Shown here one piece after another: positions 2,901 through 61,870 of a stretch of DNA of 64,000 bases; position 1 is the first letter of the stretch, and the number at the start of each line of letters is the position of its first letter. The notes beneath the pieces were generated by a model. That model was not told the DNA's origin. It saw only the letters and a program-made list of their open reading frames with translations, and made no database searches. This stretch comes from Myxococcales bacterium (GTDB lineage Bacteria; Myxococcota_A; UBA9160; SZUA-336), in contig JABSQV010000029.1 of the NCBI GenBank assembly GCA_013215565.1, positions 29,219-93,218 of the forward strand, in the 5' to 3' direction. The position numbers and the translations under genes were made by a program.

Positions 2901-2930
2901 CGCTTCCCCCTTTGGAAACCGGCTCCCGAA

Positions 2931-39536: not shown

Positions 39537-39555
39537 GGGCGCGGGGCTCGCGACG

Positions 39556-40374
39556 CTAGAAGGGCCGGTCACCCGCGATAGTCACGCGGTAGCCGTGCCT
39601 CACCTGCGGGTAGTAGTCGAACGTGGCGTGGTGCTGGGCGCAGCGGTTGTCCCAGAACGCGATCGAGTTCGGCTGCCAGCTGAAGCGGCAGTGGAAGTCC
39701 GGATGCTGGATGTGGTGGTACAGGAACGCCAGGGTCGCCCGACTCTCGGCCGGGCGCATGCCGCGGATCCGGGTCGTGAAGCCCGAGTTCACATAGAGGG
39801 CCTTGCGGCCGGTTTCGGGATGCGTGCGAATGACCGGGTGTTCGTTCTTGCGGAACTCGCGACCCTCCATGGCGCCGTAGCCCGGCCTGCCGTGCACGTG
39901 TTCGTTCTCGTGGACCGCGCTCAGGCTCGACAGGAACCCCTGCCAGTGATCCGAGAGTGCCTCGTAGGCCGCGTACATGCTCGCGAACAGCGTGTCTCCG
40001 CCCGACACCGGCACCTGTTCCAGCCGCAGGATGCTGCCCGAGGGCGGTTCCGCCTCACAGCTCACGTCCGTGTGCCAGCCGTATCCGGCGGCCCGCTTCG
40101 AGTTCTCGTCGGTGCGGATGAGCAGGACTTCGGGGTGTCCTTCGAGGGACGGCACCGAGGGGTGAACGTGCAGTTCGCCAAACAGCCGGCCGAAGGCCTT
40201 GTGCTGCTCGAGGGTGAGTACCTGGTCCCGGAAGAACAGCACCAGGTGCTCGAGCCAGGCGGCGTGCACGCTTTTGAAAGTCTCGGGGCTGAGTGGCACT
40301 GAGAGATCCAGGCCCGTCAGCTCCGCACCGATCACGGGGTTGAGCGGTGAAATCGAGAGCTCGGGTTCCGTCAT
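39556..40374 (-). CDS. TauD-family Fe(II)/2-oxoglutarate dioxygenase
   Basis: WHTDVS, GGDTLFASM, HPVIRTHPETGRKALYVN, WDNRCAQH. Confidence 0.92.
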   Translation of the reverse strand: MTEPELSISPLNPVIGAELTGLDLSVPLSPETFKSVHAAWLEHLVLFFRDQVLTLEQHKAFGRLFGELHVHPSVPSLEGHPEVLLIRTDENSKRAAGYGWHTDVSCEAEPPSGSILRLEQVPVSGGDTLFASMYAAYEALSDHWQGFLSSLSAVHENEHVHGRPGYGAMEGREFRKNEHPVIRTHPETGRKALYVNSGFTTRIRGMRPAESRATLAFLYHHIQHPDFHCRFSWQPNSIAFWDNRCAQHHATFDYYPQVRHGYRVTIAGDRPF

Positions 40375-40422
40375 CGCCTGGGACTCCCCGCGGCCCGGAC
40401 CTCGCGGCCCGGGATCGCCCGC

Positions 40423-41277
40423 CTACTGCTTCGCGATCACCTCGCTGCCGAGCTTGTCCAGCGCCTCGACCGGGTTGCCTCCCAGGGCCGGTACCGGAAT
40501 CACCAGCCGGTCTACCCCGATGTCGGCGTAGCCCGGCAGTGAGTCCACGCCCTCGGCGAGACCCATCCACATCGCCGTGACCTCGATCTCGTCGGGGTCG
40601 CGCCCCTCTTCCCTGCAGGCGTCGGCGAGCTGGCCGAGCAGCGGCTTCAGTTGATCGACGCCGGCCCCGGGCGCGAAGTAGCCGTCGCCGTAACGGGCCG
40701 CGCGCTGGAAGGCCTTGCCCTTGGAGCCCCCGATCACCACCGGAAGGTTCGTCGGAATCGGGTAGCTCTTGAATCCCTGCCAGTTCAAGAACTCGCTCTG
40801 ATGGCTGAATTCGGCGCCTCCCCAGAGCTTGCGCATCGCTTGAATGTAGTCGTCGAAACGCGCGCCACGGCGCTCGAAGGAGACCCCCATCGCGTCGAAC
40901 TCCTCGCGCAGCCAGCCGATCCCGAGCCCGAGCATGAAGCGCCCGTTCGAGACGAAGTCCAGGCTCGCCGCCTGCTTGGCGAGCAGCAGCGGATTGACCT
41001 GGGGCAGGATGTTGACGCCGGTTCCGAGGCGCACGCGCTCGGTGTGGGCCGCGACGACGCTGAGCGCGATCAGCGGGTCGACGAAATTGGTGTCCGGCGT
41101 AGTGCCCATCTTGCCGCTCGGGCTGTAGGGATAGCGCGACTCGTAGGTCTCGGGGACGAGCACGTGCTCGAAGGTCCAGAGTGACTCGACGCCGACCTGT
41201 TCCGCCTTCCGGGCCAGGCCCACGATGTTCTCGACACTGTTCACGCCAACGTTGACGGGAATGATTCCGATTTTCAT
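40423..41277 (-). CDS. LLM-class (putative F420-dependent) oxidoreductase
   Basis: SLWTFEHVLVP..YPY...DPLIAL...LAKQAASLD..SNGRFMLGLGIGWLREEF...RAARYGDG. Confidence 0.88.
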   Translation of the reverse strand: MKIGIIPVNVGVNSVENIVGLARKAEQVGVESLWTFEHVLVPETYESRYPYSPSGKMGTTPDTNFVDPLIALSVVAAHTERVRLGTGVNILPQVNPLLLAKQAASLDFVSNGRFMLGLGIGWLREEFDAMGVSFERRGARFDDYIQAMRKLWGGAEFSHQSEFLNWQGFKSYPIPTNLPVVIGGSKGKAFQRAARYGDGYFAPGAGVDQLKPLLGQLADACREEGRDPDEIEVTAMWMGLAEGVDSLPGYADIGVDRLVIPVPALGGNPVEALDKLGSEVIAKQ

Positions 41278-43135: not shown

Positions 43136-43215
43136 TAGTGCCCCGGGACGTCGTCCCGCGTCCACGCCGTTCCAGGGGGGACGGCAATGCGGCGACGCCC
43201 GACAAGGAGCACGTG

Positions 43216-44664
43216 ATGGAGACCGCCGGAACGACACTGTGGTGGCCGCAGACACCCCTCGCCCTTCTGGGCGTAGTGCTTGGAGCGATGGTGCTGATGT
43301 ACTGCGGCCGTCAGGCCGCGCACGGCGCAATCCGGGCGCTCACGAGCGCGCTGCGAGACCTATTCGAGCGATGCGGGGCTGCGCTGATGGGCGCGCAGGA
43401 GCGGCTGGTACAGCGCAACCAGGAGGTGCTGCTCGAGTTCGGAAACCAGCAGACCGAGCGCCTGATCGAGCGCGAGTTTCACCGCGTGAACTCCGTGGTC
43501 TCGCGGGATCTCGCGGGCTATCCGAGTCTCAACCGCCGACTCGCGGACCAGATTCAGCGGATCGACGAGGACTACCGGGAGTCGACGGACGTTCCTCCGG
43601 CGCCGCCGGAATGGACGCGCGCGGTCGAGACGATCGCGAGCCTTCCCCAGAACGGCGACCCCGTCGTCGGACGCATCCTGGGGGACATCCACCGGACGCT
43701 CACCAGGGCCGAGAAGGGTGCCATCGATTCCTACCGGAAGGCGAGCGGCGAGCGGCACCTGTTGCTCAAGCGCATGCTCCCCTTCTGGCGCAGGCTGACC
43801 CAGATCCTGGAGCAGGTGGACGGGACCATCAGCGGCCTGGCCGAGCGGGCCCAGGTGATCGACCGGCACATGGACACCTACGAGCAGATCCGGGACAAGT
43901 CGGATCGCGCGCTTCGGGTGCTCTCGGCTTCGTCGATGACGCACTTCATCGCGTCGGGCCTCGTGCTCGTGATCGCGCTGCTTGGCGGGTTCATCAACTT
44001 CCACCTGATCGCCCTGCCCATGTCGGAAATGGTCGGTGCTACGAGTTACGTGGGCCCGGTGGCCACCTCGGACATCGCGGCGCTCGTGATCATCCTGACC
44101 GAGATCGCCATGGGCCTGTTCCTGATGGAGTCGCTCCGGATCACCCGGCTGTTTCCGACGATTCACATGATGGACGACCAGATGCGGCGGCGCATGATCT
44201 GGGTCTCGGGCGGGATTCTGTTCACGCTCGCCTCCGTCGAGGCTTCGCTCGCCTACATGCGCGACATCCTCGCGGCCGATCGTGAGGCGCTCACACAGTC
44301 GCTGGCCGGCGTGCAGGTCGCGCAGGCGACGCTGCGCTGGATTCCGTCGATCGGCCAGATGGTGATGGGATTCATGCTGCCCTTCGCGCTCGCGTTTGCG
44401 GCGATTCCGCTGGAGTCGTTCATCCACACCTCGCGCGTCGTCGTCGGAAACGTCGTGGCCTTCGGCATGCGCGTGGTCGGGACGAGTTTCGACTTGATCG
44501 GGAACTTCCTGGGCTCGGTGGGAAAGCTGCTCGTGCATTTGTACGACTTCATGATCGTGGTTCCGCTCTGGCTCGAGCAGAGCCTCGGACACCGCGGTGG
44601 GCGGAAGGCCGTCCCGGTGAAGAGCCAGTCCGGCGGGCCCAATAAGCAGCCGGCGGGGGGATAG
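43216..44664 (+). CDS. Uncharacterised membrane protein (N-terminal TM, long helical region, 4-5 C-terminal TMs)
   Basis: AAGGAG RBS; strong coding bias; hydropathy pattern. Confidence 0.8.
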   Translation: METAGTTLWWPQTPLALLGVVLGAMVLMYCGRQAAHGAIRALTSALRDLFERCGAALMGAQERLVQRNQEVLLEFGNQQTERLIEREFHRVNSVVSRDLAGYPSLNRRLADQIQRIDEDYRESTDVPPAPPEWTRAVETIASLPQNGDPVVGRILGDIHRTLTRAEKGAIDSYRKASGERHLLLKRMLPFWRRLTQILEQVDGTISGLAERAQVIDRHMDTYEQIRDKSDRALRVLSASSMTHFIASGLVLVIALLGGFINFHLIALPMSEMVGATSYVGPVATSDIAALVIILTEIAMGLFLMESLRITRLFPTIHMMDDQMRRRMIWVSGGILFTLASVEASLAYMRDILAADREALTQSLAGVQVAQATLRWIPSIGQMVMGFMLPFALAFAAIPLESFIHTSRVVVGNVVAFGMRVVGTSFDLIGNFLGSVGKLLVHLYDFMIVVPLWLEQSLGHRGGRKAVPVKSQSGGPNKQPAGG

Positions 44665-44668
44665 GGCC

Positions 44669-45349
44669 ATGAGACACGCCGAACCGGACAACCAGAGAAA
44701 CCTGCTTGCGCTGGCGGTGCTGGCCCTCGTGGTCGGCTGGGCCGCGCTGGGTTGCGGCGAGTCGCGCCCGCACACCCGGGCCGTCTATCTGCTGCTCGAT
44801 ACTTCGGGAACCTACTCGCAGGAGATCAAGAAGGCCCAGGGCATCGCCAACTACCTGCTCGGGACGCTCCACAGTGGCGACTCCCTCGGCCTGGCCCGCA
44901 TCGATAGCGCGAGCTTCAGCGAGAAGGACATCATCGCCAAGGTCACGTTCGACTCCCGGCCGTCCTACACCAACCAGCAGAAGCGTGCGTTCCGCAAGAA
45001 CCTCGACCGCTTCGTGGGTCGGGTCCGGGGCAGCACGCACACCGACATCACAGGCGGAATGCTGCAGGCCGCGGAGTGGCTGAGGGAGACCGGGGCCGGA
45101 TACCAGTACATCCTGATCTTCTCCGATCTCGAAGAGGATCTGCGGGCCGGGCACATCCGGGACTTCACGGTCGATCTCTCCGGGATCGGCGTGGTCGCCT
45201 TGAACGTGACGAAGCTCAGAAGCGACCAGATCGATCCGCGCGAGTACCTGAAGCGGCTCGATCACTGGGAGGGACGTGTGCAGGACGGCAGCGGCACCTG
45301 GAGCGTGATCAACGATCTCGACCGGCTCGACCACCTGCTCAGGAACTGA
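44669..45349 (+). CDS. vWA-domain lipoprotein
   Basis: Lipobox ALGC; MIDAS-like LLDTSGT...TDI...IFSD; starts 4 nt after the upstream stop. Confidence 0.82.
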   Translation: MRHAEPDNQRNLLALAVLALVVGWAALGCGESRPHTRAVYLLLDTSGTYSQEIKKAQGIANYLLGTLHSGDSLGLARIDSASFSEKDIIAKVTFDSRPSYTNQQKRAFRKNLDRFVGRVRGSTHTDITGGMLQAAEWLRETGAGYQYILIFSDLEEDLRAGHIRDFTVDLSGIGVVALNVTKLRSDQIDPREYLKRLDHWEGRVQDGSGTWSVINDLDRLDHLLRN

Positions 45350-45379: not shown

Positions 45380-45421
45380 AAAGCAAACCGCCCCCGGGAA
45401 CCGGCTGGTTCCCGGGGGCGG
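45380..45421 (-). terminator. Intrinsic terminator of the giant peroxidase gene (may also serve the convergent vWA gene)
   Basis: 15-bp perfect stem CCGCCCCCGGGAACC-GGCT-GGTTCCCGGGGGCGG followed by TTTGCTTT on the minus strand. Confidence 0.75.
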
Positions 45422-45493
45422 CGGATTCCCCCCCGGGGACCTGGGGGTCCCCGGGGCGGGCCAGAGCCGGGGGCTCTGGCTCTCAGTTTCTAT

Positions 45494-48400
45494 TTACTGA
45501 CAGGTGATGTGCACCTCCGCGCCGGGCTCGAAGCCGCGTCCACGACAGCGGTAACCGCCGTTGCGGCGCGTGGAGCAATTGAGATCGCTCGCACTGGCCT
45601 CGCCTGTACTACAGGTCCCGAAGAAGTGAATCCGTCCGCGGCTGTCCGCGGTGGCGGTTGCTTCAGTGTCGGTCGGAGCCGGCGCTGCCGCCGGAGTCTC
45701 AGCCGGAGTCTCAGCCGGGGTCTCCGTTGCGGCCGGAGCCGTGCTCGCCGCAGCTGCGGTGCCACCACTGCAGGTCACGTGGACCAGAGTGCGTGGCTCG
45801 AGGCCTCGGCCTCGGCAGCTGAAGGAGCCCCTGTCCGCCGTGTTGCAGCGCAGGCCGAGTGCCGAAGCCTCGGCGCCCGCGTCGCAGATCCCGCGGATGC
45901 GAAGGCGTCCGCGCAGATCCACGAAGCCGCTGCCTGCCGCCGTCTCGACCGTAACGACCGGATCGGCACTGCCGAGATCGATGTCGAAGCCGGTCACGTC
46001 CTGTGCGTCGTTCAGGCTGGAGTCTCCCACGAGAATCCGCGTCGCCACAGCCGCGTCGCCAACGAGGACGGTCACGATCGTGCTTCCGCTCACCAGCGGT
46101 GCCACGTCGGCACCCCGGATCGAGAACAGCACGTTGACCGCATCCTGCTCGGCCACTCCGCTCGGAAGCGCGGTGATCGGATCCAGGATCTCAATGGCCA
46201 CGATCTCGGCAGCGAACACGCCCGTCACCTGAGTGCCGGCCATGAATCCGACCGAGAAAGCGTCCACCGCGATCTCGTCACCAGGACAGACCTGGGGCAG
46301 CGGGCCGCAGCCCAGAGTCTCGCCCGCGGAGAATGCCGCGTCGAGCCCATTGACGCCTCCGAAGAGGTCGATGTCGACATTCGGGATGGTGACGTCGAAG
46401 CGAGCTAGACCGGGCCGCGAGACATTGAGCACGGTGATCGTGTCGCCGTCGATGTCGCCCGCGTCGCCGTTGAAGTTCGCCACCGGGACCAGTACGTCCA
46501 CGACCGGCGGTGCCGCTGCGATTGCATCGGCCACAGCGGCCTCCGCTGCAGCGACAACGGCCGCGGGAGCACCCGTAGCCTGAGCCACCACCAACGCTGC
46601 AGCCGCGTCGATCTCGGCCACCGTCAGCAGGATCGCCACGTCCTGAGCGTCGTTCACGCTCGAGTCACCGAAGAAGCCCACGCCGTCCGCGACCGGTACG
46701 CCGTCGAGGCTCACGACCGCACGCGTCAGTCCGGTCACCAGCGGTGCCACGTCGGCACCCCGGATCGAGAACAGCACGTTGACCGCGCCCTGGTCGACTT
46801 CGAGCGTCACGGGGTCCGTGATCGCCACGATCTCAGGTCCGAACACGCCGGTCACCTCGGTGGTGACGGAGTCCACGAACATGAGCGTGATGCGATCGAC
46901 CGCGATCTCGTCTTCTCCCAGGATCATCACACCGAAGCCGGTGTTCGTGAACAGGTCCAGATCCACGGCCGGGATGGTCACGTCGAAACGTGCCAGCCCG
47001 GGCCGGGATGCGTTCACGAAGTTGATCGGCGCGAGGTCTGCCGCGACACCATTGAAGTTGGCGTTCGGTACGAGCGCCAGCTCTGCTGCAAGTGCCGCCG
47101 CCGTGTTCGCCGCCGCCGCCGCGTCGTTCGCCGCCGTGAGCGCCGCCGTCGCGGCTGCGATTGCACCCGCGTCGCCGGTGGCCTGTGCGATGAACAGCGT
47201 AGCCGCTGCAGCGATCTGGTCGTCGCTCAGCATGATCAGCACGTCCTGTGCGTCGTTCACGCTCGAGTCCCCGAAGAAGGACTCGGACGCGACTTCCACA
47301 CCGTCCACGGTGAGCGATGCCCGCGTGAGGCCCCGGATCAGGGGTGCCACATCCGCGCCCCGGATCGAGAACAGCACGTTGACCGCGTCCTGGATCACCT
47401 CACCGGTCGGATTACCGGCCGCGTCCAGAACCTGGATCGCCACGATCTCCGAGGTAAAGACCCCGAGGATGGCCGGGCCATTTAGAGTGACGTTCGCGAA
47501 CGTCAGCAGGAAGCTGTCCACCGCGATTTCGTCCTCTGCCACGATCGTCTGGCCGAAGCCCGTGTTCGCGAACAGTGCCAGGGGCACATTCGGAATCGTC
47601 GCATCGATCCGAGCCAGGCCGAGCCGCGAGAGGCTCTCGAAGGTCACGGTGCCGCCGTCGATGTCGGCTGCCGTGCCAAGGAACATGGCCGTCGGGACCG
47701 GCTCGACGAAGGGTGCATTGTTCACGAGTGCGACCGTCACGCCCGTTGCTGAGCCGATGCTCGAGTCACCGAGGAAGAGTGCATTGGCCACCTCTTCGCC
47801 CGTCGAGTTCACCGTCACGCTGACCGTGGTCGGGCCACTCACGAGCGGTAGCACGTCGAAGTCTCGGATCGAGAACAACACGTCTACAATGGTCGCGTCG
47901 AGGAGCACCGGCGGGAAGACCAGTGCATCGCAGACCGCCACGATCTCGGGCGAGAAGGTTCCGGTCACGTTACCGGACGCGTTGTTGGTGAAGGTGACCG
48001 TGATGCCCGTCGTCGCGAGTTCCGCGCCGCAGCCGAAGCCGGCTGCAAAGGGCTCGTCGACGTTCTGACCCGCAACCTGCGGGAAGTCAGCGAGGAGCGC
48101 TGCTGGAATCACGATGTCGAAGCGCGGACCACCGGGAACCGAAGCGTTCTCGAAGGTCGTGCCTGCGCCATCCAGGTCTGCCGCGGTGCCAATGAAGTTG
48201 GCCAGTGGGAGTCCATCGGGGTTGGCGGCCACGGCCCCGTCGGCACCGACCACCGTGACGGGCGCGGAGCGCACCGTCTCGAGGACACCTGCCTCATCCT
48301 GGAAGGTCACCACGACGCGAACCCGGAGGCCGGCCTCTGCCACGGTGACGTCCATGCTCTGGCCGGTGACCCCGATCGGGTCGCCAGTACCGTTGATGCC

Positions 48401-51400
48401 GCCCAGCCGGATGATGTCTTCGAAGACACCGCTTCCAGCCTCGAGCTCGGACTGCCAGACGAAGCTCGCACCGGCGGGATCGACCCCACCCAGCAAGCTC
48501 ACGTTGTCGGCATCCATCACGGCCGAGAGGTCGGCCGTCGCCATACCGTCCACCTGGGGCAGCAGGGGCGAGATGGTGGGCTGGCCCGTTGCCAGGCTGT
48601 TGCCACCGGCCGCGCCGTCGCCGCCAATCTCGAGCGTCACGTCGTCGAACGCCAAGCGCTCGATGTTCTTGACCAGGTCTCGACCGGTGCTTCCGAGTAC
48701 GCGATTGTCGAGAACCTCGATGTAGCCATCGGGGCCAGCGAGCGCATCCGGACCGCCGAACACGTCGTCGACCGTGAGGACGCCCATGGCATCAACCACG
48801 CCCTCGATCGAGTAGTCGGCGAGGTTGCCCGCGAAGGTCGCGGTATCCGTGTCCACGTTCATTGGATCCCGATCGCTGATCGCGCGTGAGATCGAGAGCT
48901 CACCCGGGTTGATCGCACCGGCGAAGATCGCCTGGGCGACGTCCTGCATGCTGTCGACAACGATGATCATCTCGGCTGCATCGAGGGCCGCCTGGGCCGC
49001 TGCGAGGCCCGCGCTTGCATCTGTCACGGCCTGAGCCGCTACGCCTGCATCCACGAGTGCCGCCGCTGCCGCCGCATCCGCCACGACCGAAGCCGCCGCC
49101 GAGGCCACCGCCGCCGCCGCTGAGGCATCTGCCGTCGCTTGGGCTGCCTGTGCATTGTCCGCCGCCGCCTGGGTGGTCAGCGTGGCCGCAGCCAGCGCTG
49201 CCGCCGCATCCGCTGCCGCCTGGGCCGCTCCGGCCGCAGTCGCGTTCGCTGCCGCAAGCGCGGTCTCTGCCGCGACCTCGGCCGCAATCGCATCCGCCGC
49301 CACCTGCGCTGCCGCAAGCTCTGCCGCCGCCGCGGTCGCTGCATCGGCAGCCGCTGCGTCGGAAGCTGTCGCCGCCGCCGCCGAAGCTGCCGCTGCGGCA
49401 TCGGCCATCGCCTGCGCGTCAGCCGCGTTGGCTGCTGCTGCGTCCGAAGTCGCCTGCGCTGCCGCTGCCGCATCCGCTGCCGCCTGGGTCGTCAGAGTGG
49501 CTGCCGCCAGCTCTGCTGCCGCGTCCAATGCGGCCTGTGCCGCCGCTACCGAAGCCGCGTTCGCTGCCGCGAGCGCGGTCTCTGCCGCGACCTCGGCCGC
49601 AATCGCGTCCGCTGCCGCCTGGGCTGCTGCGAGACGTGCTGAATCTGCGTCCGCCGCGGCTGCCTGTGCCGTTGCGAGATCCGCTGCCGCCGCGGCCGAA
49701 ACCACCGCCGCCGCATCCGCAATCGCCTGCGCTGCAGCCGAAGCCGTCGCCGCATCATCGGCCATCGCCTGCTCGGACGCCGCCGCATTCGCCGCTGCAA
49801 CTGCTGCGGCCGAAGCCGCTGCCGCATCCACGATGGCCTGCGCCTCCGCGGCCTGGGCCGCAGCCGAAGCCGCCGCCGCTGCATCTGCAGCCGTCATGGC
49901 GTTCGCTGCCGTTGCTGCGGCCGCGCCCGAAGCCGCTGCCGCCGCATCCGCAGTCACCTGCGCCGCAGCTGCAGCCGCCTGGGTCGCTGCCGCCGCCGTG
50001 GCTGCTGCATCCGCCGCCGCCTGTGCCGTATTGACCTGGGCCTGGGCCGCGTTCGCAGCCGACTGGGCCGCGATCGCGTTCGTGAGGGCCGTCACGAAGT
50101 CACCCTCGCCGCTCGCGATGAACGCGAGCAGGGCTGCCTGCGCTGCGTCGCGCGCATCGAGGGCCGCCTGAAGCGCCGCCTCTGCGCCCGCGAGCACGCC
50201 ATCCGCGTTCGTCTGTGCCGCTGCCGCTGCCGCCGCGTCCGTCGCTGCAGTCGCTGCCGCCGCTGCCGCATTGGCCGCATCGGCCGCGGCCTGATCGGCT
50301 GCCGCCTGGGCTGCACCTGCTGCCGCAGCATCGGCCGCCGCCGCCGTCGCGGCCGCGCTGGCCGCTGCGGTGGTGGCCGCCATCGCGGCATCCGCTGCCG
50401 CCGCTGCGTCAAGGGCTGCCGTCATGGCATTCAGGGCCGCAGCCGCTGCTGGCGCTGCCTGAGCCGCCTCCGCCGCTGCTGCATCGGCCGCCGCCTGTGC
50501 CGCCGCTGCATCGGCCGCTGCCGCGTTCGCGGCTGCCATGGCTGCGCCATCGGCCACTGCCTGCGCTGCGCTGGCGGCATCGAACGCCGTCTGCGCGTCG
50601 AGCGCCGCTTGCGTGGCTGCATCGGTGGCCGCCATCGCCGCGGCCTCTGCCGCGACCGCGTCTGCTGCCGCCGCTGTGGCCGCGGCTGCCGCCGCATCGG
50701 CGTCAGTAGAGTCTACGCCAGCCGCGATGTTCGCATCGGCCGCATTCTGAGCCGCCGCCGTCGCCGCATCGGCCGCTGCCGAAGCGATCGCCTGTGCTGC
50801 GGCCGCGTTCACTGCCGCTGCCGCATCGACGGCCGCTGCCGTTGCCGCGTCTGCCGCCGCTGCTGCCGCCGTAGCTGCCGCTGCGGCTGCCGCATTCTCG
50901 GCCGCAGCCGCGTCAATCGCTGCCAGTGAAGCCGCCTCGGTGGCCGCCATCGCCGCGGACTCTGCCGCGGCCGCTGCTGCTGCCGCCGCATTCGCCACGT
51001 CTTCGGCCGCCATCGCCGCCGCGTCCGTCACGCCGGCAGCGATCTGGGCATCGGCTGCATTTAGCGCGGCCGTCGTGTTTGCAGCCGCTGCTGCCGCATC
51101 AGTCGCGGCCTGCGCCGCGTCCGCGGTCTCCTGAGCGTCCGCCGCTGCCGCTGCCGCCGCCGTCGCGATGACGTTGGCGTCGGCCGCTGCCGAAGCAGCG
51201 GTCGCGTTGTCAAGGTTCTGCTGCGCCGCTGCAGCCTCGATTGCGAGGGGACCGCCAAACCGGACCATGGGGTTCGGGGTCGAGATCCCGACCGCGAGCG
51301 CCGCGTCGCCATCGATGATGTCGTCGCCGAGGTCGCCCTCGATCACGTCGCTGCCGGCGCCGCCGAGCATGAGCTCGCCGCCGGTCCAGCCGAACTGGGT

Positions 51401-54400
51401 CCAGCCGTTCACGGGATCGACCGGAAGGACACGGCGCTCGGTGACGGGGATCATGTCATCCAGGCCATCGATCAGCGAGAAGCCGTCGTGCATGATGGTG
51501 CCACCCGCATTGGTGGCCACCACCAGTTCGTTGCCACCCAGGCCGGCTTCGGTCAGGGCCGCGCCGTTCAGGATGTCGGCATGCGGCGAACCGCTCACGC
51601 CCTCGACCCGGTCGTACCGGTCGGCCACGGTAGCGCTCGAGGGAGGCAGGGTCGGCCGCAGGAAGATGGTCAGGTCGAGATCGATGTCCACGCCTTCGGG
51701 ATTGTTCGCGAAGCTCACCCAGTCGAAACCGAGCTGGCCTTCGACGCGATCGATGCCGGGACCGGCCACGATGATGTCATCGCCGTTTTCCATGTCGGCA
51801 TCGTTGTTGCCGTTGCGGCTGATGAAGACGTCGTTGCCCTTGTGTCCGGGCTCGCCTGCCTCGGCAGCAACACCGAAGTCGCCCTGGAAGAGGTCCTCAC
51901 CGCCGCCCAGGTTCTCCATCCAGTCGTTGCCCTGGCCACCGCGAATGTGACCGAGGAACAGGCCGTCCAGGATGTAGTCGTCGCCGGGTCCAGCGAAGAT
52001 CTCGCCGAGTTCGCTCGGGTTCACGATGAAGTCGTTGCCGTTGTCACCGAAGATCACGTCCTCTTCGTTACCACTGTTGATGGCGTCGTTGCCATCGCCA
52101 CCTTCGATCACGTCCGGACCGCCGAGGTCCGTAATGATGTCATCGCCGGGACCGCCCTCGATCAGGTCGGCGCCGTCGCCGCCCTCGAGCCGGTCGTTAC
52201 CTGCGCGACCCCAGATCGAGTCGTCGCCGATGCCACCGATGATGGTGTCGTTCCCGGACGTGCCGCCGATGGTGTAGTGATCTCCACCGGTCGTCTGCAG
52301 GAACCGCGTCGGATCCGGCACGTTGATGTTGGTCGTGCTCGACGCTGGATCGCGGATCCAGAACGGGAACAGTTCCGACTCGCCCTCGGGATCTACACTC
52401 CCGAGACCATCGTTGAACTGAAGGGTCTGGTCGACCTCCATGATGAAGTTCGGAACCGAGAACACGTTGAGCGAGAGGCTGCCATGGCCTGCCATACCGA
52501 TGTCGGTATTCCGCATGACCAGCGCCGTGAACGAGTTGGACTCGAGTTCATTGAAGAAGTGCGTGTTCGCGGTCCGAGCTACGTAGTAGAAGCGGTCCCC
52601 GATCTCCATGCGCTCGATCTGGTTCTCGAACACGAAGTTGTGCGTCGAGCCCAGGTAGCCACCGAAGGGCTGTCGCTCCTCCGCGAGGCCACCGTTCCAG
52701 AAGTCCACATCTTCGATACCCGTGGTGGGCGTCCCGCCGATGGGGGTTGCATATGCGCCGCGGCTGAAGAGGAAGTCCCGCGCATCGGCCGGAACCGCCG
52801 CAGTGCCGTCACTCCAGCCATTGTTCACGCAGTAGGTCGCCGCGTCAGCCGTGAGCGAACCCACGATCGCGCAGGCCGCCGCACGCTTTCCAGCGTAGGT
52901 CGTGGCTGTCGTGATCGAGTCATGCGTGCCGTAGGCCGCGATGAAGTTCACGAGGCTCGCCTCGTGGCGCAGGTTGTCGCCGTAGTCCATCCAGTGGATG
53001 TAGGGCTTGAGCTGCTCACTCGCGGTGGCCTTGAAGAAGCGCCGCCGGGCCGCGTTCAACGAGGGATTTCCCACGTCACGACCACGCGCGATGTTAATGG
53101 CGCCGAGGTCGAGGGGAAGCCCCACGAGGTTATTCTGCATCGACCCGGTCACGAACTCGTCGATCTCGTTCGCGACAGTCCGGGTGAGACCGCGGATGAC
53201 CGCGCCCGCTGCCACTTCCGGCGAGAGCGTCGGGTTTCCGGCTGCGTCCGAGTTCTGGAACGCGAGCGGGTTCAGGAAGGCCTCGAACAGGCCCAACTGC
53301 TCGCCCGCCCCGGCCGCATTGACTGCGCCCGCATCCACGATCGTATTGAAGTCCGAGTCGAGACGATCGACCGTCTCGGTGAGCATCGAGTGCCCGAAGC
53401 GGTACACGGACTGAGAGAACTCCGCCGTGATCGAGACGTCCACGTTGGTGTGGTGGCCCTCGAAGGCGTCCTTGAGTCCCGAAAGCGTCGGCGCGAACTC
53501 GTCGAACACGATCCGGTTGTACTGCATCTCCGTACCGAAACGTGCGGCCTGGAAGACGCGCTCGCCGTGCCAGTCGAGACCGAGATCATCGATCGCCATC
53601 TTTGCGGTCATCTGGTTCATCAGCGAAGCATCCGTGACCGGGAACGCGAGGTTCAAGGCCGGAATCGCGTCGACGTCCACGTCGAGCCATTCGTTCAGGA
53701 AGGCCAGATCGTTGTCTGCCGCCGCGGAGTCCAGGACCACGCGCTTGACCACGTCCACGAGCCGGTTGTGCTCGGAGTGGAAGATGTGGTGGACCGTGGT
53801 GAGTGCGATGTTCTCGTTGCAGCGCCCGTCTCCACACATGAAGTGGCGTCCGAGCAACTCGTCATCGTACTCGCCCGGGGCCGCCGACTCGCGGATCCCG
53901 CGCGTGACCTGACCGCTGAGCATGTCGGTCCGCGCATTGACCACGGTGTCGGCATCGGGCGTGCCATTCGGGGCCGCCGAGTGGGCCACGTCGAGGAAGA
54001 AGCTGTGCCCGCTGCGAAGCGCGAGGCTCGCATCCACGGGATTGTCCAGGCTGCCCTCGAGCAGCGTCGGCGTGCCGTCCGGGTTGGTGCCGGTCACGAT
54101 CTGCGCAAAGCCGCCCGCACCCTTGATGATGCGACCGTAGATGTCGGTATGGATGTGCGGAATGTTGGCGCCATCCTGGTCATCGAGGTCGATGCCGAGC
54201 ACGGTGCGGGCCTGGTTGCGGATGTCCGCCCAGGTCGACATTCCCATCGGACCGCCCGCCATTCCCGGGGTACCGCCGTTGAGCAAGCGACCGCTGTTCT
54301 CCGGGCTGCCGTTCACCAGTTCGTAGTGGCGGAGCAGCGCGTTCTGGCCGCCGTGCGACCCGTAGGTCTGCTGCTGGTCGACGTGGGGGGTGGTGCGGTT

Positions 54401-55156
54401 CAGGAACTGGCGATTGCCGTCGGCGTCCGTGAACTGCGTGGCCCGAGTCATCGCCATCGAGGCGCCTTCGCCCGGTGCGAAGAGCGGGTCGTCTCCGGGG
54501 ACCGCCATCACCACCGTACCGTTGCCGCCCTTTTCGATCAGGTCGAGACCGTGATCGAAGAACTGCGCGAAGAAGGTCATGTAGGCGTTGGTGGGTGCCG
54601 ACAGACCCTCGTCCGGTGCGGTGTTGGGGATGAAGAACTGGTTGGCGCCGGCGATGTCCGGGCCGATGTCCTCTCCCTCTTCAGCCGCTGCGGTCGCCAC
54701 CGCCGCCGGGTTCTCGGTCGACTGGTTGACGATCAGGTGGCTGATTTGCCGCGGGCTGTTGTCCAGGACGTCGGCGTCGCTGGCGTAAGTCGTCCCTCCG
54801 TCAGCCGCGGGGAACACCTTGTCACCGCTGTCGCTGAAGAACTCGTCGGCCCGGCCGTTGTTTTCCTGGCCGGGGATCAGACTGTTGCAGCTACCGTCCA
54901 CGGTGCGCAGGCCCCAGGGGACGCTTGCGTTCGGGAGGATGCTGAGCAGCGCGTCGCACGATTCGCCTGCCGCGACGTGCGCCTCTGAAAATTCAATTTG
55001 CTTGAGTATGAAATTGAGGTCCGAGCGGTCGAATGCCAGGTCCCCTGAGGCGGACTGGGCAACTGCCATCCCGGACAGCATCGCGGTGGCCAGGAAGGCC
55101 ACCAGGATGGTGAGTCGGGAGAGCAGGCTGAGCGCTCTACTTCTGTCACCGGTCAT
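45494..55156 (-). CDS. Giant (3220 aa) secreted heme peroxidase of the peroxidase-cyclooxygenase superfamily (MopA/peroxicin-like) with RTX Ca-binding repeats, Ala-rich coiled-coil insert and C-terminal repeats
   Basis: GAGGAG RBS + ATG 55156; signal peptide; GLRTVDGSCN, AQFFDHGLD (distal His), DGRCNEN..HSEHNRL, YRFGHSML (proximal His), LDLGAINIARGRD; GGxGxD nonapeptides at about 52270-51700. Confidence 0.92.
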   Translation of the reverse strand: MTGDRSRALSLLSRLTILVAFLATAMLSGMAVAQSASGDLAFDRSDLNFILKQIEFSEAHVAAGESCDALLSILPNASVPWGLRTVDGSCNSLIPGQENNGRADEFFSDSGDKVFPAADGGTTYASDADVLDNSPRQISHLIVNQSTENPAAVATAAAEEGEDIGPDIAGANQFFIPNTAPDEGLSAPTNAYMTFFAQFFDHGLDLIEKGGNGTVVMAVPGDDPLFAPGEGASMAMTRATQFTDADGNRQFLNRTTPHVDQQQTYGSHGGQNALLRHYELVNGSPENSGRLLNGGTPGMAGGPMGMSTWADIRNQARTVLGIDLDDQDGANIPHIHTDIYGRIIKGAGGFAQIVTGTNPDGTPTLLEGSLDNPVDASLALRSGHSFFLDVAHSAAPNGTPDADTVVNARTDMLSGQVTRGIRESAAPGEYDDELLGRHFMCGDGRCNENIALTTVHHIFHSEHNRLVDVVKRVVLDSAAADNDLAFLNEWLDVDVDAIPALNLAFPVTDASLMNQMTAKMAIDDLGLDWHGERVFQAARFGTEMQYNRIVFDEFAPTLSGLKDAFEGHHTNVDVSITAEFSQSVYRFGHSMLTETVDRLDSDFNTIVDAGAVNAAGAGEQLGLFEAFLNPLAFQNSDAAGNPTLSPEVAAGAVIRGLTRTVANEIDEFVTGSMQNNLVGLPLDLGAINIARGRDVGNPSLNAARRRFFKATASEQLKPYIHWMDYGDNLRHEASLVNFIAAYGTHDSITTATTYAGKRAAACAIVGSLTADAATYCVNNGWSDGTAAVPADARDFLFSRGAYATPIGGTPTTGIEDVDFWNGGLAEERQPFGGYLGSTHNFVFENQIERMEIGDRFYYVARTANTHFFNELESNSFTALVMRNTDIGMAGHGSLSLNVFSVPNFIMEVDQTLQFNDGLGSVDPEGESELFPFWIRDPASSTTNINVPDPTRFLQTTGGDHYTIGGTSGNDTIIGGIGDDSIWGRAGNDRLEGGDGADLIEGGPGDDIITDLGGPDVIEGGDGNDAINSGNEEDVIFGDNGNDFIVNPSELGEIFAGPGDDYILDGLFLGHIRGGQGNDWMENLGGGEDLFQGDFGVAAEAGEPGHKGNDVFISRNGNNDADMENGDDIIVAGPGIDRVEGQLGFDWVSFANNPEGVDIDLDLTIFLRPTLPPSSATVADRYDRVEGVSGSPHADILNGAALTEAGLGGNELVVATNAGGTIMHDGFSLIDGLDDMIPVTERRVLPVDPVNGWTQFGWTGGELMLGGAGSDVIEGDLGDDIIDGDAALAVGISTPNPMVRFGGPLAIEAAAAQQNLDNATAASAAADANVIATAAAAAAADAQETADAAQAATDAAAAAANTTAALNAADAQIAAGVTDAAAMAAEDVANAAAAAAAAAESAAMAATEAASLAAIDAAAAENAAAAAAATAAAAAADAATAAAVDAAAAVNAAAAQAIASAAADAATAAAQNAADANIAAGVDSTDADAAAAAATAAAADAVAAEAAAMAATDAATQAALDAQTAFDAASAAQAVADGAAMAAANAAAADAAAAQAAADAAAAEAAQAAPAAAAALNAMTAALDAAAAADAAMAATTAAASAAATAAAADAAAAGAAQAAADQAAADAANAAAAAATAATDAAAAAAAQTNADGVLAGAEAALQAALDARDAAQAALLAFIASGEGDFVTALTNAIAAQSAANAAQAQVNTAQAAADAAATAAAATQAAAAAAQVTADAAAAASGAAAATAANAMTAADAAAAASAAAQAAEAQAIVDAAAASAAAVAAANAAASEQAMADDAATASAAAQAIADAAAVVSAAAAADLATAQAAAADADSARLAAAQAAADAIAAEVAAETALAAANAASVAAAQAALDAAAELAAATLTTQAAADAAAAAQATSDAAAANAADAQAMADAAAAASAAAATASDAAAADAATAAAAELAAAQVAADAIAAEVAAETALAAANATAAGAAQAAADAAAALAAATLTTQAAADNAQAAQATADASAAAAVASAAASVVADAAAAAALVDAGVAAQAVTDASAGLAAAQAALDAAEMIIVVDSMQDVAQAIFAGAINPGELSISRAISDRDPMNVDTDTATFAGNLADYSIEGVVDAMGVLTVDDVFGGPDALAGPDGYIEVLDNRVLGSTGRDLVKNIERLAFDDVTLEIGGDGAAGGNSLATGQPTISPLLPQVDGMATADLSAVMDADNVSLLGGVDPAGASFVWQSELEAGSGVFEDIIRLGGINGTGDPIGVTGQSMDVTVAEAGLRVRVVVTFQDEAGVLETVRSAPVTVVGADGAVAANPDGLPLANFIGTAADLDGAGTTFENASVPGGPRFDIVIPAALLADFPQVAGQNVDEPFAAGFGCGAELATTGITVTFTNNASGNVTGTFSPEIVAVCDALVFPPVLLDATIVDVLFSIRDFDVLPLVSGPTTVSVTVNSTGEEVANALFLGDSSIGSATGVTVALVNNAPFVEPVPTAMFLGTAADIDGGTVTFESLSRLGLARIDATIPNVPLALFANTGFGQTIVAEDEIAVDSFLLTFANVTLNGPAILGVFTSEIVAIQVLDAAGNPTGEVIQDAVNVLFSIRGADVAPLIRGLTRASLTVDGVEVASESFFGDSSVNDAQDVLIMLSDDQIAAAATLFIAQATGDAGAIAAATAALTAANDAAAAANTAAALAAELALVPNANFNGVAADLAPINFVNASRPGLARFDVTIPAVDLDLFTNTGFGVMILGEDEIAVDRITLMFVDSVTTEVTGVFGPEIVAITDPVTLEVDQGAVNVLFSIRGADVAPLVTGLTRAVVSLDGVPVADGVGFFGDSSVNDAQDVAILLTVAEIDAAAALVVAQATGAPAAVVAAAEAAVADAIAAAPPVVDVLVPVANFNGDAGDIDGDTITVLNVSRPGLARFDVTIPNVDIDLFGGVNGLDAAFSAGETLGCGPLPQVCPGDEIAVDAFSVGFMAGTQVTGVFAAEIVAIEILDPITALPSGVAEQDAVNVLFSIRGADVAPLVSGSTIVTVLVGDAAVATRILVGDSSLNDAQDVTGFDIDLGSADPVVTVETAAGSGFVDLRGRLRIRGICDAGAEASALGLRCNTADRGSFSCRGRGLEPRTLVHVTCSGGTAAAASTAPAATETPAETPAETPAAAPAPTDTEATATADSRGRIHFFGTCSTGEASASDLNCSTRRNGGYRCRGRGFEPGAEVHITCQ
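48968..51250 (-). repeat. Ala-rich low-complexity coiled-coil region with internal 315-nt duplications
   Basis: 760 codons, mostly Ala; duplicated segments offset by 315 nt at 49261/49576 and 50626/50941. Confidence 0.9.
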
Positions 55157-55552
55157 ATTCTTCTCCTCGGCTGGGTCGTTCGCCCGTTTCGGGCGGGCCA
55201 TTGGGTTTCGGTTGCTTGCGAATTCACGGAATCTCCACTGGGGTCGAATGGCCCCAGTTCTGAAAACCGCGGGTATATGGCCATAGTGCACCATCAAAGT
55301 CAAGCATTCCTGGTGAATTACCCCCATTTTATTTCTTGATGCACATCTCCGTTGGATTTATTGGGATGTTTTGCGCGCAGCTTGCGGAGATCGTGTCTAA
55401 AACACCACAAATCTCGAACCGGCAACCGCTGGCCGAGGCGCCTCCAGAGAGCTCGTGGCGCGCGGATTCCCGGGTCGAGGGGGGGCCCGGACCCGAGCTC
55501 CGCCAGGCGGCGGTCGCGTGGCCCCGGGTCCGTCCTCTAAGCTCCGCTTCGC

Positions 55553-57913
55553 ATGCGGATCCGCGTGTTCGGGTGGGGGGTGGCCGGGACCGTCGCGCTG
55601 GCACTGGTCGCGTGCGGTGTGTTCATGCTGCGGGCGGAGCGCGCGGTCGAAGCGCGCTTCCAGCGGGGTCTGTTCCAGACGCCTTCGCGGATGCTCGCGC
55701 GGCCGCTCGTGCTCGAGCGCGGAGACGACCTCGATCGCCTGGATCTGCTGGCACGCCTGGAGCGGCTGGGGTTTCGCCCCGCGCGTGCGAGCAGGCGCCC
55801 GCCGGAGCGCGCTGAGGACCCGCCGGTGCGCCCGGAGCGCGGCGAATACCTGCGGACCCCGGACGCGCTCCATCTGGGACTTCGCGGCGGCGAGCCGGGC
55901 GCGGTCGACCGGGTTCAACTCCGCCTGGACGAACGCGGACGCATCTCGCGGATCGCAAACGCAGATGGATCCGCCCTGCCCCGGCTCACGCTCGAGGGCG
56001 AGCTGATCGGAGAGATTCAGCCAGCCGTACAGGCGCGACGCAAGCTGGTGGCGTTTCGGGACCTGCCGCGCACGCTGGTCGAGGCGGTGATCGAGATGGA
56101 GGACCGCCACTTCCTGGAACACCCGGGACTCGACGCCTGGCGCATCCTGGGCGCGAGCCTCGCGAACCTGCGCGCGGGACGCATCGTGCAGGGAGGCAGC
56201 ACCATCACCCAGCAGCTGGTCAAGAACTTCTGGCTCTCGCCGGAGCGCTCCTTGGGCCGCAAGCTACGTGAAGCGTCGATGGCCCTGGTGCTGGAGTGGC
56301 GCCACCCGAAGCAGGAGATCCTCGAGGCCTACCTGAACGAGATCTACCTGGGCCAGAGCGGCAGCGTCGCCATCCATGGCGTGGGCCAGGCGGCCCAGCA
56401 CTACTTCGGGCGAGAAGTCTTCGACCTGAGTCTGGCGCAGGCGGCGCTGCTGGCCGGGATCATTCCGGCACCCGGACGCTATTCGCCGTTCCAGGATCCG
56501 GATGCAGCGCTCGCACGCCGGGCGCTGGTGCTCGGCGTGCTCGCGGAGCGTGGACGGATCTCGGAGGAAGCCCACCGCGCGGCTCGGGCCGAGCCCTTGC
56601 TGCTGCACCGGAGCCGCGCAGCGTCAGAGCCGGCCCCCCACTTCGTGGCACAGGTTCGGCAGGAACTCGCCGAGCACTGGGACGAGGCGCTGCTGGCCAC
56701 CCGCGGACTCTCGATCACCACAACGCTCGACTCGGAGCTTCAATCGTTCGCGCGACGCGCCGTGGCGCGGGGGCTCGGCCGCCTGGAGTCGACCTACCCC
56801 GGCCTGCGCCGATCGGAGCAGCCGCTGGAAGCGGCCCTGGTCGCGCTCGACCCGACGACGGGCGAGATCCTGGCGCTGGTGGGAGGCCGCGACTTCGCGC
56901 GCAGCCAGTTCAACCGCGCGACCCAGGCGAAGCGACAGCCGGGCAGCGTCTTCAAGCCGATCGTGGCCCTGGCCGCGCTCTCGCGTGGCGAGGGCGGGCT
57001 GCCCGCGTTCACGCTGATCTCGGAGCTCGACGACTCTCAGCTGGTCGTGACCACCGGGAAGGGCGACTGGATCCCGGTCAACTTCGACCGTGAGTTCCGC
57101 GGCCCGGTGACGCTCCGCGACGCGCTCGAGCGCTCGCTGAACGTGCCGATGGCGCGGCTGGGGCTCGAGGTCGGGCCCGCCCGCGTGGTCGAAACTGCGC
57201 GCAGGCTGGGGCTCGAGGGCGAACTCCGCCCGATCCCGAGCCTCGCACTGGGCCCCTTCGAAATGAGCCTGCTCGAGATGACGCGCGCCTACGGAGTGTT
57301 GGCGGCGCGCGGGCTTCGCGCCGAGTCGCGCAGCTACCTCGCGGTGACCGCGCCGGACGGGGAAGCGCTGGAGCAGAGCGTGCTGCGCGCCGAACAGGTC
57401 TTCGACCCGTCGGAAACCTGGCTGGTGACCGAGGCGCTGCGGGCTGCCGTCGAGCGCGGCACAGGCCGCTCGCTCGCGCGCTTTGGGCTCGCGGGCCGCG
57501 TGGCCGGCAAGACCGGGACCACCAACGACTTCCGCGACGCCTGGTTCATCGGCTACACGCCGGATCTCGTGGTCGGGGTCTGGGTCGGATTCGACGCCGG
57601 GGACAGCCTGGGCCTGCCAGCCTCGGCGGTGGCGCTCCCGATCTTCGGCCGCTTCATGCAGGCCGTGTTCGAGCAGGCCGAGCCGCCGCGCTTCCGGGCT
57701 CCGGCCGGGCTCGAGTTCGTGCGAATTCACCCCGAGAGCGGCCTTCGCGCCGGGCCCGGCTGCCCGGGACCCCGCCAGCCGTTCCTGCGCGGGACGGCGC
57801 CCGATCGCCAGTGCACGGTCGCGGTGTGGAAGACCGCGATGCGGGGCCTGCGCTGGCTGCGCGAGCAGCTTCCCGGAGGCCGGTCTCAGGCCGACGGAGC
57901 GCGCTCGGAGTAA
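55553..57913 (+). CDS. mrcB: Class A penicillin-binding protein (PBP1b-like)
   Basis: EDRHFLEH, GGSTITQQL, RKLRE, KQEILEAYLN, GSVFKP (SxxK), SLN, KTGT; UB2H-like N-terminal segment. Confidence 0.88.
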   Translation: MRIRVFGWGVAGTVALALVACGVFMLRAERAVEARFQRGLFQTPSRMLARPLVLERGDDLDRLDLLARLERLGFRPARASRRPPERAEDPPVRPERGEYLRTPDALHLGLRGGEPGAVDRVQLRLDERGRISRIANADGSALPRLTLEGELIGEIQPAVQARRKLVAFRDLPRTLVEAVIEMEDRHFLEHPGLDAWRILGASLANLRAGRIVQGGSTITQQLVKNFWLSPERSLGRKLREASMALVLEWRHPKQEILEAYLNEIYLGQSGSVAIHGVGQAAQHYFGREVFDLSLAQAALLAGIIPAPGRYSPFQDPDAALARRALVLGVLAERGRISEEAHRAARAEPLLLHRSRAASEPAPHFVAQVRQELAEHWDEALLATRGLSITTTLDSELQSFARRAVARGLGRLESTYPGLRRSEQPLEAALVALDPTTGEILALVGGRDFARSQFNRATQAKRQPGSVFKPIVALAALSRGEGGLPAFTLISELDDSQLVVTTGKGDWIPVNFDREFRGPVTLRDALERSLNVPMARLGLEVGPARVVETARRLGLEGELRPIPSLALGPFEMSLLEMTRAYGVLAARGLRAESRSYLAVTAPDGEALEQSVLRAEQVFDPSETWLVTEALRAAVERGTGRSLARFGLAGRVAGKTGTTNDFRDAWFIGYTPDLVVGVWVGFDAGDSLGLPASAVALPIFGRFMQAVFEQAEPPRFRAPAGLEFVRIHPESGLRAGPGCPGPRQPFLRGTAPDRQCTVAVWKTAMRGLRWLREQLPGGRSQADGARSE

Positions 57914-61611: not shown

Positions 61612-61870
61612 GCAGCTCCGAGTGGAGCTTCGCCAGCCTGCAAAGCGGATTGGGGCGGGTTCTGCACACGCTGGCTTTCCACTCACCCCGCGGGGTACTA
61701 TCTCCGGGGTAGCCCCCGGCGCCGGTCCCTCGGGGCCCGGCCTCGCTCGCTGGCCCGGAAGCCCCGGTCCCCGTGGCTTCAGATTGGGCCGGGAGCCGCC
61801 GGATCCGGCGGTTTGCAGCAGGCGGCGCACAATCCGGAGTGGCAGTAGCGTTCGGATAGGGAGGAATTCG

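Follow-up and report, generated by a model that had tools for sequence, protein, structure and literature searches.

The MopA-type haem peroxidases are one of two known classes of Mn(II)-oxidising enzymes in bacteria, and their mechanism is unresolved, partly because giant proteins secreted by type I systems are hard to purify (PMC6247904; literature statements here and below follow the part of each source that was available). The MopA of Erythrobacter sp. SD-21 is a protein of 2138 aa with a single peroxidase unit, and the same paper names Ca-binding PERCAL motifs for proteins of this type (PMC6247904). The MopA of Pseudomonas putida GB-1 comprises 3608 aa; P. putida MopA 'lacks a signal peptide' yet occurs in the supernatant (PMC13689576). 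A preprint survey counted 1227 MopA homologues, 47 of them in Actinobacteria (10.1101/2022.11.10.515945). The family is well known and very widespread, and its single-unit form is not new in itself. Here we describe a member encoded in a 64,000-nt stretch of DNA, hereafter the window, from a Myxococcales bacterium (assembly GCA_013215565.1, contig JABSQV010000029.1, positions 29,219 to 93,218 of the forward strand), in which a minus-strand gene at 45494..55156 specifies a protein of 3220 aa. The new point, as far as sequence can tell, is the export signature of this window protein: it carries a putative signal peptide and paired cysteines in place of the features of a type I substrate.

By homology the window protein is a MopA-type 'long peroxicin' with an intact haem pocket. 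Pfam and alignment with homologues place a haem peroxidase domain of the MopA-hp type at residues 42-940 (52337..55033; this and all other parts of the protein are encoded on the minus strand), where the An_peroxidase model scores 170.3 bits against a cut-off of 25. It is followed at residues 941-1304 (51245..52336) by an RTX (hemolysin-type Ca-binding) block, within which HemolysinCabind matches five stretches. The peroxidase-cyclooxygenase superfamily is characterised by the distal signature G-Q-x-x-D-H-D and an R-x-x-E motif; Asp and Glu form ester bonds with the haem, His and Arg serve in catalysis, the Gln has been linked with halide binding, and the proximal His is hydrogen-bonded to an Asn (PMC4420034). 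The corresponding residues of the window protein are Q198, D201 and H202 with R445 and E448 on the distal side, H589 on the proximal side, and N688. Across an alignment of 40 peroxidase domains the motif QFFDH is kept in 39 of the 39 rows covering that position, and GDGRxNEN, YRFGHS and LDLxxxNxxRxR(D/E) in all 40; D-H-G replaces D-H-D in each of the 39 covering long-peroxicin rows. With residues 1-899 as the query, identity to both domains of the P. putida, Bosea, Methylomirabilis and other MopA-type proteins is 41-49%, and the best matches among solved structures are lactoperoxidase-type chains (8s6c_A, E 3.8e-23). A word-indexed homologue search, which scored only the 7999 candidates sharing most words, gave at least 2437 matches; among those listed, the best reach 45-49% identity over residues 30-1000, bear the names 'peroxidase family protein' or 'heme peroxidase' and come mostly from Pseudomonas, and others listed come from Bosea, Rhizobium, Variovorax, Methylomirabilis and Desulforhopalus. 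This search missed closer relatives, which a search with the C-terminal tail recovered (see below). A scan of GTDB genomes confirmed 215 relatives from many phyla, with a maximum identity of 49%. The window protein is nevertheless not a canonical family member, since it differs in export signature and in its place in the tree.

The export signature starts with the N-terminus. Residues 1-33 (55058..55156) have the make-up of a Sec-type signal peptide, with a basic n-region, the hydrophobic core LTILVAFLATAMLSGM and AVA before Q34, whereas canonical homologues begin, without any leader, at the equivalent of about residue 42 (M-A-x-F-I-K-S-D-L-E-F-I-L). Similar leaders are present in a paralogue from the same genome, in a partial gene from a second genome of the genus (G001), in the four database members of the clade with complete N-termini and in three copies from GTDB genomes. 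Two other fates were rejected for the window protein: export by the twin-arginine translocation (Tat) pathway, as the leader is without a twin-arginine motif, and lipoprotein anchoring, as no lipobox Cys lies near the cleavage site. The secretion genes form the other half of the signature. Three canonical loci (Vreelandella, Chelativorans and Desulforhopalus, none being from Pseudomonas or Rhizobiales) were checked against NCBIfam cut-offs, and in all three the peroxidase gene is followed downstream by genes for a PrtD-type ATP-binding cassette (ABC) transporter (661-689 bits, cut-off 510) and an HlyD adaptor (323-381 bits, cut-off 209), with TolC also in one. In two canonical loci a second RTX protein, of 631 aa (L039:17876-19771) and 783 aa (L018:18860-21211), is encoded between the PrtD-type ABC and HlyD genes. 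There are no type I secretion genes within the window, and in the host genome the best matches to PrtD (244 bits, cut-off 510), HlyB (352 bits, cut-off 726) and HlyD (39 bits, cut-off 209) all stay below threshold. The type II secretin GspD reaches 513 bits in the same genome, over a cut-off of 351. An extracellular or surface location of the window protein is plausible.

The trees and the cysteines set the protein apart in the same way. In maximum-likelihood trees built with a quick search, with the Shimodaira-Hasegawa-like approximate likelihood ratio test (SH-aLRT) as the only support and no bootstraps, the window protein groups with other signal-peptide-bearing proteins (SH-aLRT 100 with 9 rows and 94 with 13 rows). 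A second clade (support 98) takes in all 27 type I-type domains and leaves the window protein out, and a third (support 100) consists of four signal-peptide-bearing Actinomycetota proteins; how the three groups branch from one another stays unresolved in the tree, which has a very long branch to the outgroup. Peroxidase domains of the window protein's clade are 50-59% identical to its own. Two of the clade proteins are named 'Myxococcota bacterium' and one partial protein 'Longimicrobiales'. The clade is separate and rare, its few named members being mostly uncultured Myxococcota. Cysteine is absent from 26 of the 27 type I-type peroxidase domains and occurs once in the remaining one; the nine rows of the window protein's clade hold 4-8 each. 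Three pairs are kept within the clade, 67/90 in 6 of 9 rows, 441/446 in all nine and 762/776 in 8 of 9, and the pair 441/446 brackets the catalytic Arg445 (C-G-D-G-R-C-N-E-N). The window protein has 18 Cys in total, an even number in each domain. It is because the pairs are conserved and the number per domain is even that we take the cysteines to be candidates for disulfides.

Beyond the RTX block the protein departs from its canonical homologues by an insertion, an Ala-rich acidic block of 758 aa (residues 1305-2062, 48971..51244) with 60% Ala, 78 Asp and Glu against 2 Lys and Arg, no Cys and, read by eye, one Pro. Pairwise BLAST puts about 794 residues between the RTX block and the following module, compared with 38 in the homologue P0004. 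The DNA of the block is 75% GC and contains imperfect repeats at multiples of 21 nt as well as a 315-nt near-tandem duplication. A periodicity of 3.5 and 7.0 residues is suggestive only, with a power of 8.5 where the maxima of shuffled sequences have their 95th percentile at 8.4-9.0, and a heptad coiled coil is not claimed; the ESM Atlas gave no usable match for the block. Contigs assembled from four runs of four studies match the gene, including 48420-49286, 49577-50092 and 50204-51129, with 0-12 differences and no gaps, and the DNA of the block is real. An in-frame 546-nt joint (182 codons, 50267 to 50814) was seen in contigs X1 and X2 from two studies, with 26 flanking letters and a depth of 4-5; either a length polymorphism or an artefact of the repeats could explain it, and it is too weak for a length variant to be called. 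The paralogue has two Ala-rich blocks of about 115 aa at the other junction, between peroxidase and RTX block, and relatives have blocks of 31-116 aa or none. We read the Ala-rich blocks as expandable spacers at domain junctions. Two type I-type homologues, from a Hyphomonadaceae bin (L059) and a Bradyrhizobium (L010), carry a helical-looking insertion rich in Ala, Gln and Glu in the N-terminal peroxidase region, and Ala-rich insertions therefore recur elsewhere in the family.

The C-terminal third begins with a family-conserved module (residues 2063-2310, 48227..48970). No Pfam family was found for residues 2062-2310; the second half of the module (residues 2185-2307, 48236-48604) is modelled by AlphaFold as an Ig-like beta-sandwich (mean predicted local distance difference test, pLDDT, 79), which matches 469 chains with Z >= 5. 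The best Ig match has a Z of 10.3 and a root-mean-square deviation (rmsd) of 2.0 A over 88 residues. Four C-terminal repeats of about 170 aa follow, 45-56% identical to copy 4: repeat 1 at residues 2317-2487 (47696..48208), repeat 2 at 2488-2660 (47177..47695) with a 36-aa Ala-rich linker after it, repeat 3 at 2697-2860 (46577..47068) with one of 30 aa, and repeat 4 at 2891-3075 (45932..46486), which is modelled as a beta-sandwich with a mean pLDDT of 88. A model of repeat 4 with the Cys modules found no match in the PDB with Foldseek at E <= 1e-3, and generic FN3/filamin-type matches only with VIA-align wide (best Z 6.2, rmsd 3.0 A, 92 aligned); the C-terminal repeat is therefore a common beta-sandwich without a specific relative, and the Cys module was barely probed by these comparisons. 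The ESM Atlas gave no usable match for repeat 4 and the Cys modules either. The protein ends in two basic modules of four Cys each, module 1 at residues 3082-3129 (45770..45913; net charge +5, isoelectric point (pI) 10.3) and module 2 at the extreme C-terminus (residues 3172-3220, 45497..45643; net +3, pI 9.0), joined by a linker rich in Thr, Pro, Ala and Glu (residues 3130-3171, 45644..45769). Pfam returned only sub-threshold matches in this region, on the low-complexity linker. The two end modules are the only basic parts of the protein. The architecture listed in the preliminary description is recovered in full: one peroxidase domain with distal and proximal His motifs (An_peroxidase, E 8e-50; H202 and H589), RTX repeats (HemolysinCabind, E 3.7e-21), an Ig-like module, the Ala spike and four copies of a new C-terminal repeat.

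The last 921 residues were searched against 1.84 billion cluster representatives, with 48 matches at E <= 1e-3, 35 at <= 1e-10 and 16 at <= 1e-30. Among 15 of these matches Pfam detected An_peroxidase with RTX in five, RTX only in two, other families only in three (TSP_3, Dicty_CTDC, HYR) and nothing in five, mostly fragments; a signal peptide is present in all four with complete N-termini. Aligned relatives have two Cys modules in 8 rows and one in 4, always at the extreme C-terminus. Other members of the clade have TSP3 or dockerin-like modules at this end, or a different Cys-containing terminus; that TSP3 and dockerin-like modules can stand where the Cys modules are otherwise found is consistent with a C-terminus that serves in docking. 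One tail match (L093, G271:C12:74432-75211) was reported with an internal TAA, yet a Cys module closes its 2460-aa frame; the alignment has probably extended beyond the stop codon.

The host assembly (G000) consists of 3.8 Mb in 154 contigs, with 66.9% GC and 91% completeness, and the window lies on its contig C77. The paralogue, of 2039 aa, is encoded on contig C112 (L090:1138-7257, minus strand). It is 72% identical in the N-terminal part with the peroxidase domain and has a leader of the same kind, with a single C-terminal repeat and a single end module; its Ala-rich blocks flank an extra Cys-containing segment between peroxidase and RTX block, so the two copies differ in how their domains are ordered around the spacers. 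In the tree the partial gene of G001 is an orthologue of the paralogue and not of the window gene. An N-terminal query found the full-length type in one of the 40 relatives searched (G001, 71% identity) and only short weak matches in G030 and G033, the former with a short peroxidase of 669 aa. A tail query was positive in at least 7 of 401 genomes sampled across the phylum, namely the host and six genomes of one other family; this number is a floor, a stricter first look having been used. The three tail-bearing copies with signal peptides come from GTDB genomes of another family of the same class. Near-identical DNA was found in 20 runs from 10 studies, in seawater, marine sediment, hydrothermal vent and cold seep metagenomes, and no RNA runs are among those listed.

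Taken together, these features make it probable that the window protein is a Sec-exported, disulfide-stabilised and catalytically intact long peroxicin that leaves the cell in two steps, with a peroxidase head on a stalk of spacer and Ig-like domains and a basic anchor at its end. The unfolded protein would cross the inner membrane via Sec, and the signal peptide would be cut after A33. In the oxidising periplasm three disulfides would lock the catalytic domain, with C441-C446 bracketing the distal Arg445, and haem and Ca2+ would be acquired outside the cytoplasm. Exit from the cell would then complete a route of two steps, with the type II secretion system as the likeliest machinery. Outside the cell it would present the N-terminal peroxidase head and the RTX beta-roll, followed by the long acidic Ala-rich spacer, presumably helical, and five Ig-like beta-sandwich domains. 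The two basic disulfide modules would probably hold it to an anionic surface, be it cell envelope, matrix or mineral, a role suggested because they alone are positively charged in a protein whose net charge is -304. The head would oxidise a small extracellular reductant. By analogy with the characterised MopA enzymes this could be Mn(II), oxidised to Mn(III), a tentative assignment that we would not put at even odds; its sole advantage is that all family members characterised so far are linked to Mn oxidation, which may be ascertainment bias. Halide oxidation as the reaction of the head seems unlikely, and other reactions, including matrix cross-linking or superoxide chemistry, take the remaining odds.

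Several points weigh against this reading. The signal peptide was assigned by eye and by comparison with homologues, without a dedicated predictor, and the lack of a type I system was judged in a draft of 91% completeness and 154 contigs. The type II route, most likely as it seems, is predicted from one secretin gene, and the protein could instead stay in the periplasm. Conservation and parity are what suggests the three periplasm-formed disulfides of the catalytic domain, just as composition is what suggests that the Ala-rich block may be a helical rod of up to ~110 nm; within the block no contig among those listed bridges 49286-49577. The residue next to the halide-binding Gln is Ala (A-Q) in the window protein and its paralogue, as opposed to G-Q in the 37 other covering rows. 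The enzymes with demonstrated Mn(II) oxidation all belong to the other clade, at 41-49% identity. The MopA-hp protein requires nicotinamide adenine dinucleotide (NAD+) and pyrroloquinoline quinone (PQQ), and no H2O2, according to the available text (PMC6247904); its mechanism is not understood and hence is beyond sequence checks.

The most serious competitor is a peroxidase that works in the manner of the cyanobacterial and animal enzymes, not as a Mn(II) oxidase, and that turns the bromide or chloride of seawater into hypohalous acid for use in defence or predation, or cross-links an extracellular matrix. The pocket would allow it, as Asp201, Glu448 and Gln198, the residues of the ester-linked haem and of halide binding, are all present; halide oxidation is the dominant activity of the superfamily members studied (PMC4420034, available part), and the closest solved structures are of the lactoperoxidase type (8s6c_A). 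The marine habitat suits such a chemistry, and the Ig-like stalk with docking-type C-termini recalls adhesive peroxidases. Nevertheless MopA-type proteins are far closer (41-59% identity over ~900 aa), the halogenating enzymes match locally only, and the second Asp of the DHD calcium signature is a Gly in all 39 covering long-peroxicin rows, so that we regard a halogenating or cross-linking enzyme as somewhat unlikely. It is very improbable, on the other hand, that the peroxidase fold is no longer enzymatic and the protein is mainly a giant adhesin or surface fibre. About 70% of its length is indeed spacer, Ig-like and repeat sequence, and relatives carry docking-type modules at their C-termini; against this, the clade has kept all haem-pocket motifs at an overall identity of only 50-59%, which indicates selection on catalysis.

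The export signature might also be illusory, the protein being an ordinary type I-secreted RTX MopA whose N-terminal extension is no signal peptide or whose true start lies downstream. RTX repeats are typical of type I substrates and the genome is incomplete at 91%, but the leader is conserved in the paralogue, in G001, in four database members and in three genome copies; the protein ends in Cys modules and has no C-terminal RTX repeats or secretion region; its 18 Cys stand against none in 26 of 27 type I-type domains; and PrtD, HlyB and HlyD are all under cut-off in the host genome, whereas 3 of 3 canonical loci have adjacent type I genes. We give this account very little credence. Equally little attaches to the idea that faulty assembly of a high-GC metagenome bin produced the giant open reading frame (ORF) or its Ala-rich block. 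Low complexity, 75% GC, the 315-nt near-tandem duplication, the stretch 49286-49577 unbridged among the contigs listed and the weak alternative joints speak for it; yet the frame is open over 3220 codons, the matching contigs from four runs and four studies show 0-12 differences and no gaps, and shorter Ala-rich linkers occur in the paralogue and in relatives.

The gene itself is intact. A minus-strand ORF at 45494..55327 has 3277 open codons, and the coding sequence (45494..55156) starts within it at the ATG at 55156 and comprises 3220 aa and a stop. This start is preferred because a Shine-Dalgarno-like GAGGAG, read directly, lies 6 nt 5' of it (55163..55168, minus strand), because GC content at third codon positions (GC3) is 0.63 in the 57 codons upstream of the ATG as opposed to 0.80 in the gene, and because contigs from two other marine runs (X2 and X5) align up to exactly 55156 and are divergent beyond. 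The mature protein would have a mass of ~316 kDa and a net charge of -304. The peroxidase gene is transcriptionally isolated, and its monocistronic layout was correctly described: the downstream ORFs at 43138-44664 and 44669-45349 (plus strand) are convergent with it, and the upstream neighbour, a PBP1A-type gene at 55553-57913 (plus strand), is divergent. A terminator-like hairpin of 16 pairs, 13 of them G-C, with the T-rich tail TTGCTTTGG, lies 72 nt past the stop (45387..45422, minus strand), and the divergent intergenic region of 396 nt has an AT-rich core (55289..55420, on neither strand in particular) of 42-47% GC, as against 68.5% in the window, which is presumed to be the promoter region. 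The preliminary description had given the gene its own terminator and AT-rich promoter region; the hairpin at 45422-45387 and the AT-rich core bear this out, but a scan for a sigma-70 consensus promoter found no site, with 0.7 expected. 'Stand-alone', its other term, needs a qualifier because of the paralogue on C112 of the same genome.

Some further features of the surroundings may be recorded. The 5' leader has a 9-bp GC-rich hairpin (55178-55198), 22 nt upstream of the start codon, which the scan scored as terminator-like on the opposite strand and which could be a regulatory or stabilising 5' structure; Rfam gave no RNA families in the window. The two ORFs within 43138-45349 (plus strand) encode 508 aa without a Pfam match and 226 aa with a sub-threshold VWA match only (18.6 bits, cut-off 27). 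This match aside, Pfam found no family on the flanking ORFs of the gene and of the paralogue; the two sets of flanking ORFs have no similarity to each other, and a conserved partner gene was not found. At 37686-41277 an acyl-CoA-dehydrogenase-like gene, a TauD-family dioxygenase and a luciferase-like monooxygenase form a cluster that looks like an organosulfonate or similar oxygenase set. A DUF1329/LolA-like protein of 565 aa (61559-63256, plus strand) adjoins a gene for serine hydroxymethyltransferase (SHMT), and the SHMT near the peroxidase gene is 92% identical to that of a 'Myxococcota bacterium' genome bin.

The label MopA/peroxicin-like needs refinement: the homology and the intact haem pocket stand, but with its Sec leader, its Cys pairs and a clade of its own the protein is not canonical, and the comparison with MopA-type proteins puts it in the long-peroxicin family and outside the 27-row type I-type clade (support 98). 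The activity had also been proposed to be new for the lineage, which, going by the names of three relatives' proteins, is probably one of uncultured marine Myxococcota. A full-text search, with most subscription journals and supplements outside its reach, found, judging by titles and abstracts, no literature tying MopA-type or animal haem peroxidases to Myxococcota, but the family is already known from many phyla. Within the same limits neither the Sec-leader, Cys-bearing Myxococcota clade nor the tail domains nor the giant Ala-rich block was found in the literature. For marine water, sediment, vents and seeps it is still open which microbes, and which of their enzymes, carry out Mn oxidation. 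A family branch whose members fold by way of the periplasm and form disulfides there would open another way to approach a MopA-type enzyme. It would also show, in a clean case from nature, how a protein is reshaped when its export route changes: a leader has been acquired, cysteines are there, the secretion operon is missing and the tail has been exchanged. Since both leader-bearing clades, the Myxococcota-type and the Actinomycetota-type, lie outside the single type I-type clade, long peroxicins may have been Sec-exported first. A fuller scenario, in which uncultured marine Myxococcota, widespread across seawater, sediment, vent and seep habitats, deploy an extracellular oxidase with its Mn(II)- or halide-oxidising head on an Ala rod of ~100 nm, and in which the Sec/Cys form is ancestral and type I MopA arose later with loss of the cysteines, is speculative and on present evidence unlikely; if true, it would amount to a documented switch of secretion route written into a catalytic domain. 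Two features of the protein still lack an explanation and may merit structural study, the 758-residue block with its 60% Ala and the basic 4-Cys modules at the end.

How, then, does the window protein compare with the systems described so far? Like the Erythrobacter SD-21 MopA, itself a long peroxicin, it has one N-terminal haem peroxidase domain of ~950 aa followed by a hemolysin-type Ca-binding region, and the construct proposed in the preliminary description (residues ~30-900) mirrors MopA-hp (residues 1-969) of that protein (PMC6247904, available part). Further comparison is through the single-unit proteobacterial homologues examined here (L039, L018, L074, L029), which begin without a leader, contain 0 Cys in their peroxidase domains (0-2 over the full ORF) and fall in the type I-type clade, whereas the window protein has a leader, Cys pairs, the Ala-rich block and a tail of another kind. 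The haem-pocket motifs of the 'peroxidase family proteins' from Pseudomonas and Rhizobiales are identical to its own, at 43-49% identity over the peroxidase and RTX unit and 30-37% over the Ig-like module. Proteobacterial proteins of 3400-4300 aa are, however, tandems of two units with C-terminal RTX repeats, each unit consisting, by pairwise BLAST, of a ~900-aa peroxidase, a ~300-aa RTX block and a ~230-aa module, and the window protein has one unit. Proteins of the Pseudomonas/Rhizobiales type have no signal peptide and no Cys, in contrast to its Sec leader, 18 Cys and lack of a detectable type I system. The homologues from Actinomycetota bins (L057, L071, L072) resemble it in combining a single peroxidase unit with an N-terminal signal peptide and a few Cys, among them a C90 equivalent in 3 of 4 rows. 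They differ in that the Actinomycetota proteins are without the 441/446 and 762/776 pairs and form a separate clade (support 100) with C-termini unlike those of the window protein; the ends of L057 and L071 look fibronectin-III-like by eye. The peroxidockerins and the cyanobacterial LspPOX, lastly, are secreted bacterial peroxidases of the same superfamily (Family 6; PMC4420034, available part). A relative within the clade, P0254, bears a dockerin as the peroxidockerins do (Dockerin_1, 23.3 bits, cut-off 22.9), and Pfam found no dockerin in the window protein. What distinguishes the window protein from the peroxidockerins is the catalytic domain, which is that of a long peroxicin, ~900 aa in length, with large insertions and with DHG where they have DHD.

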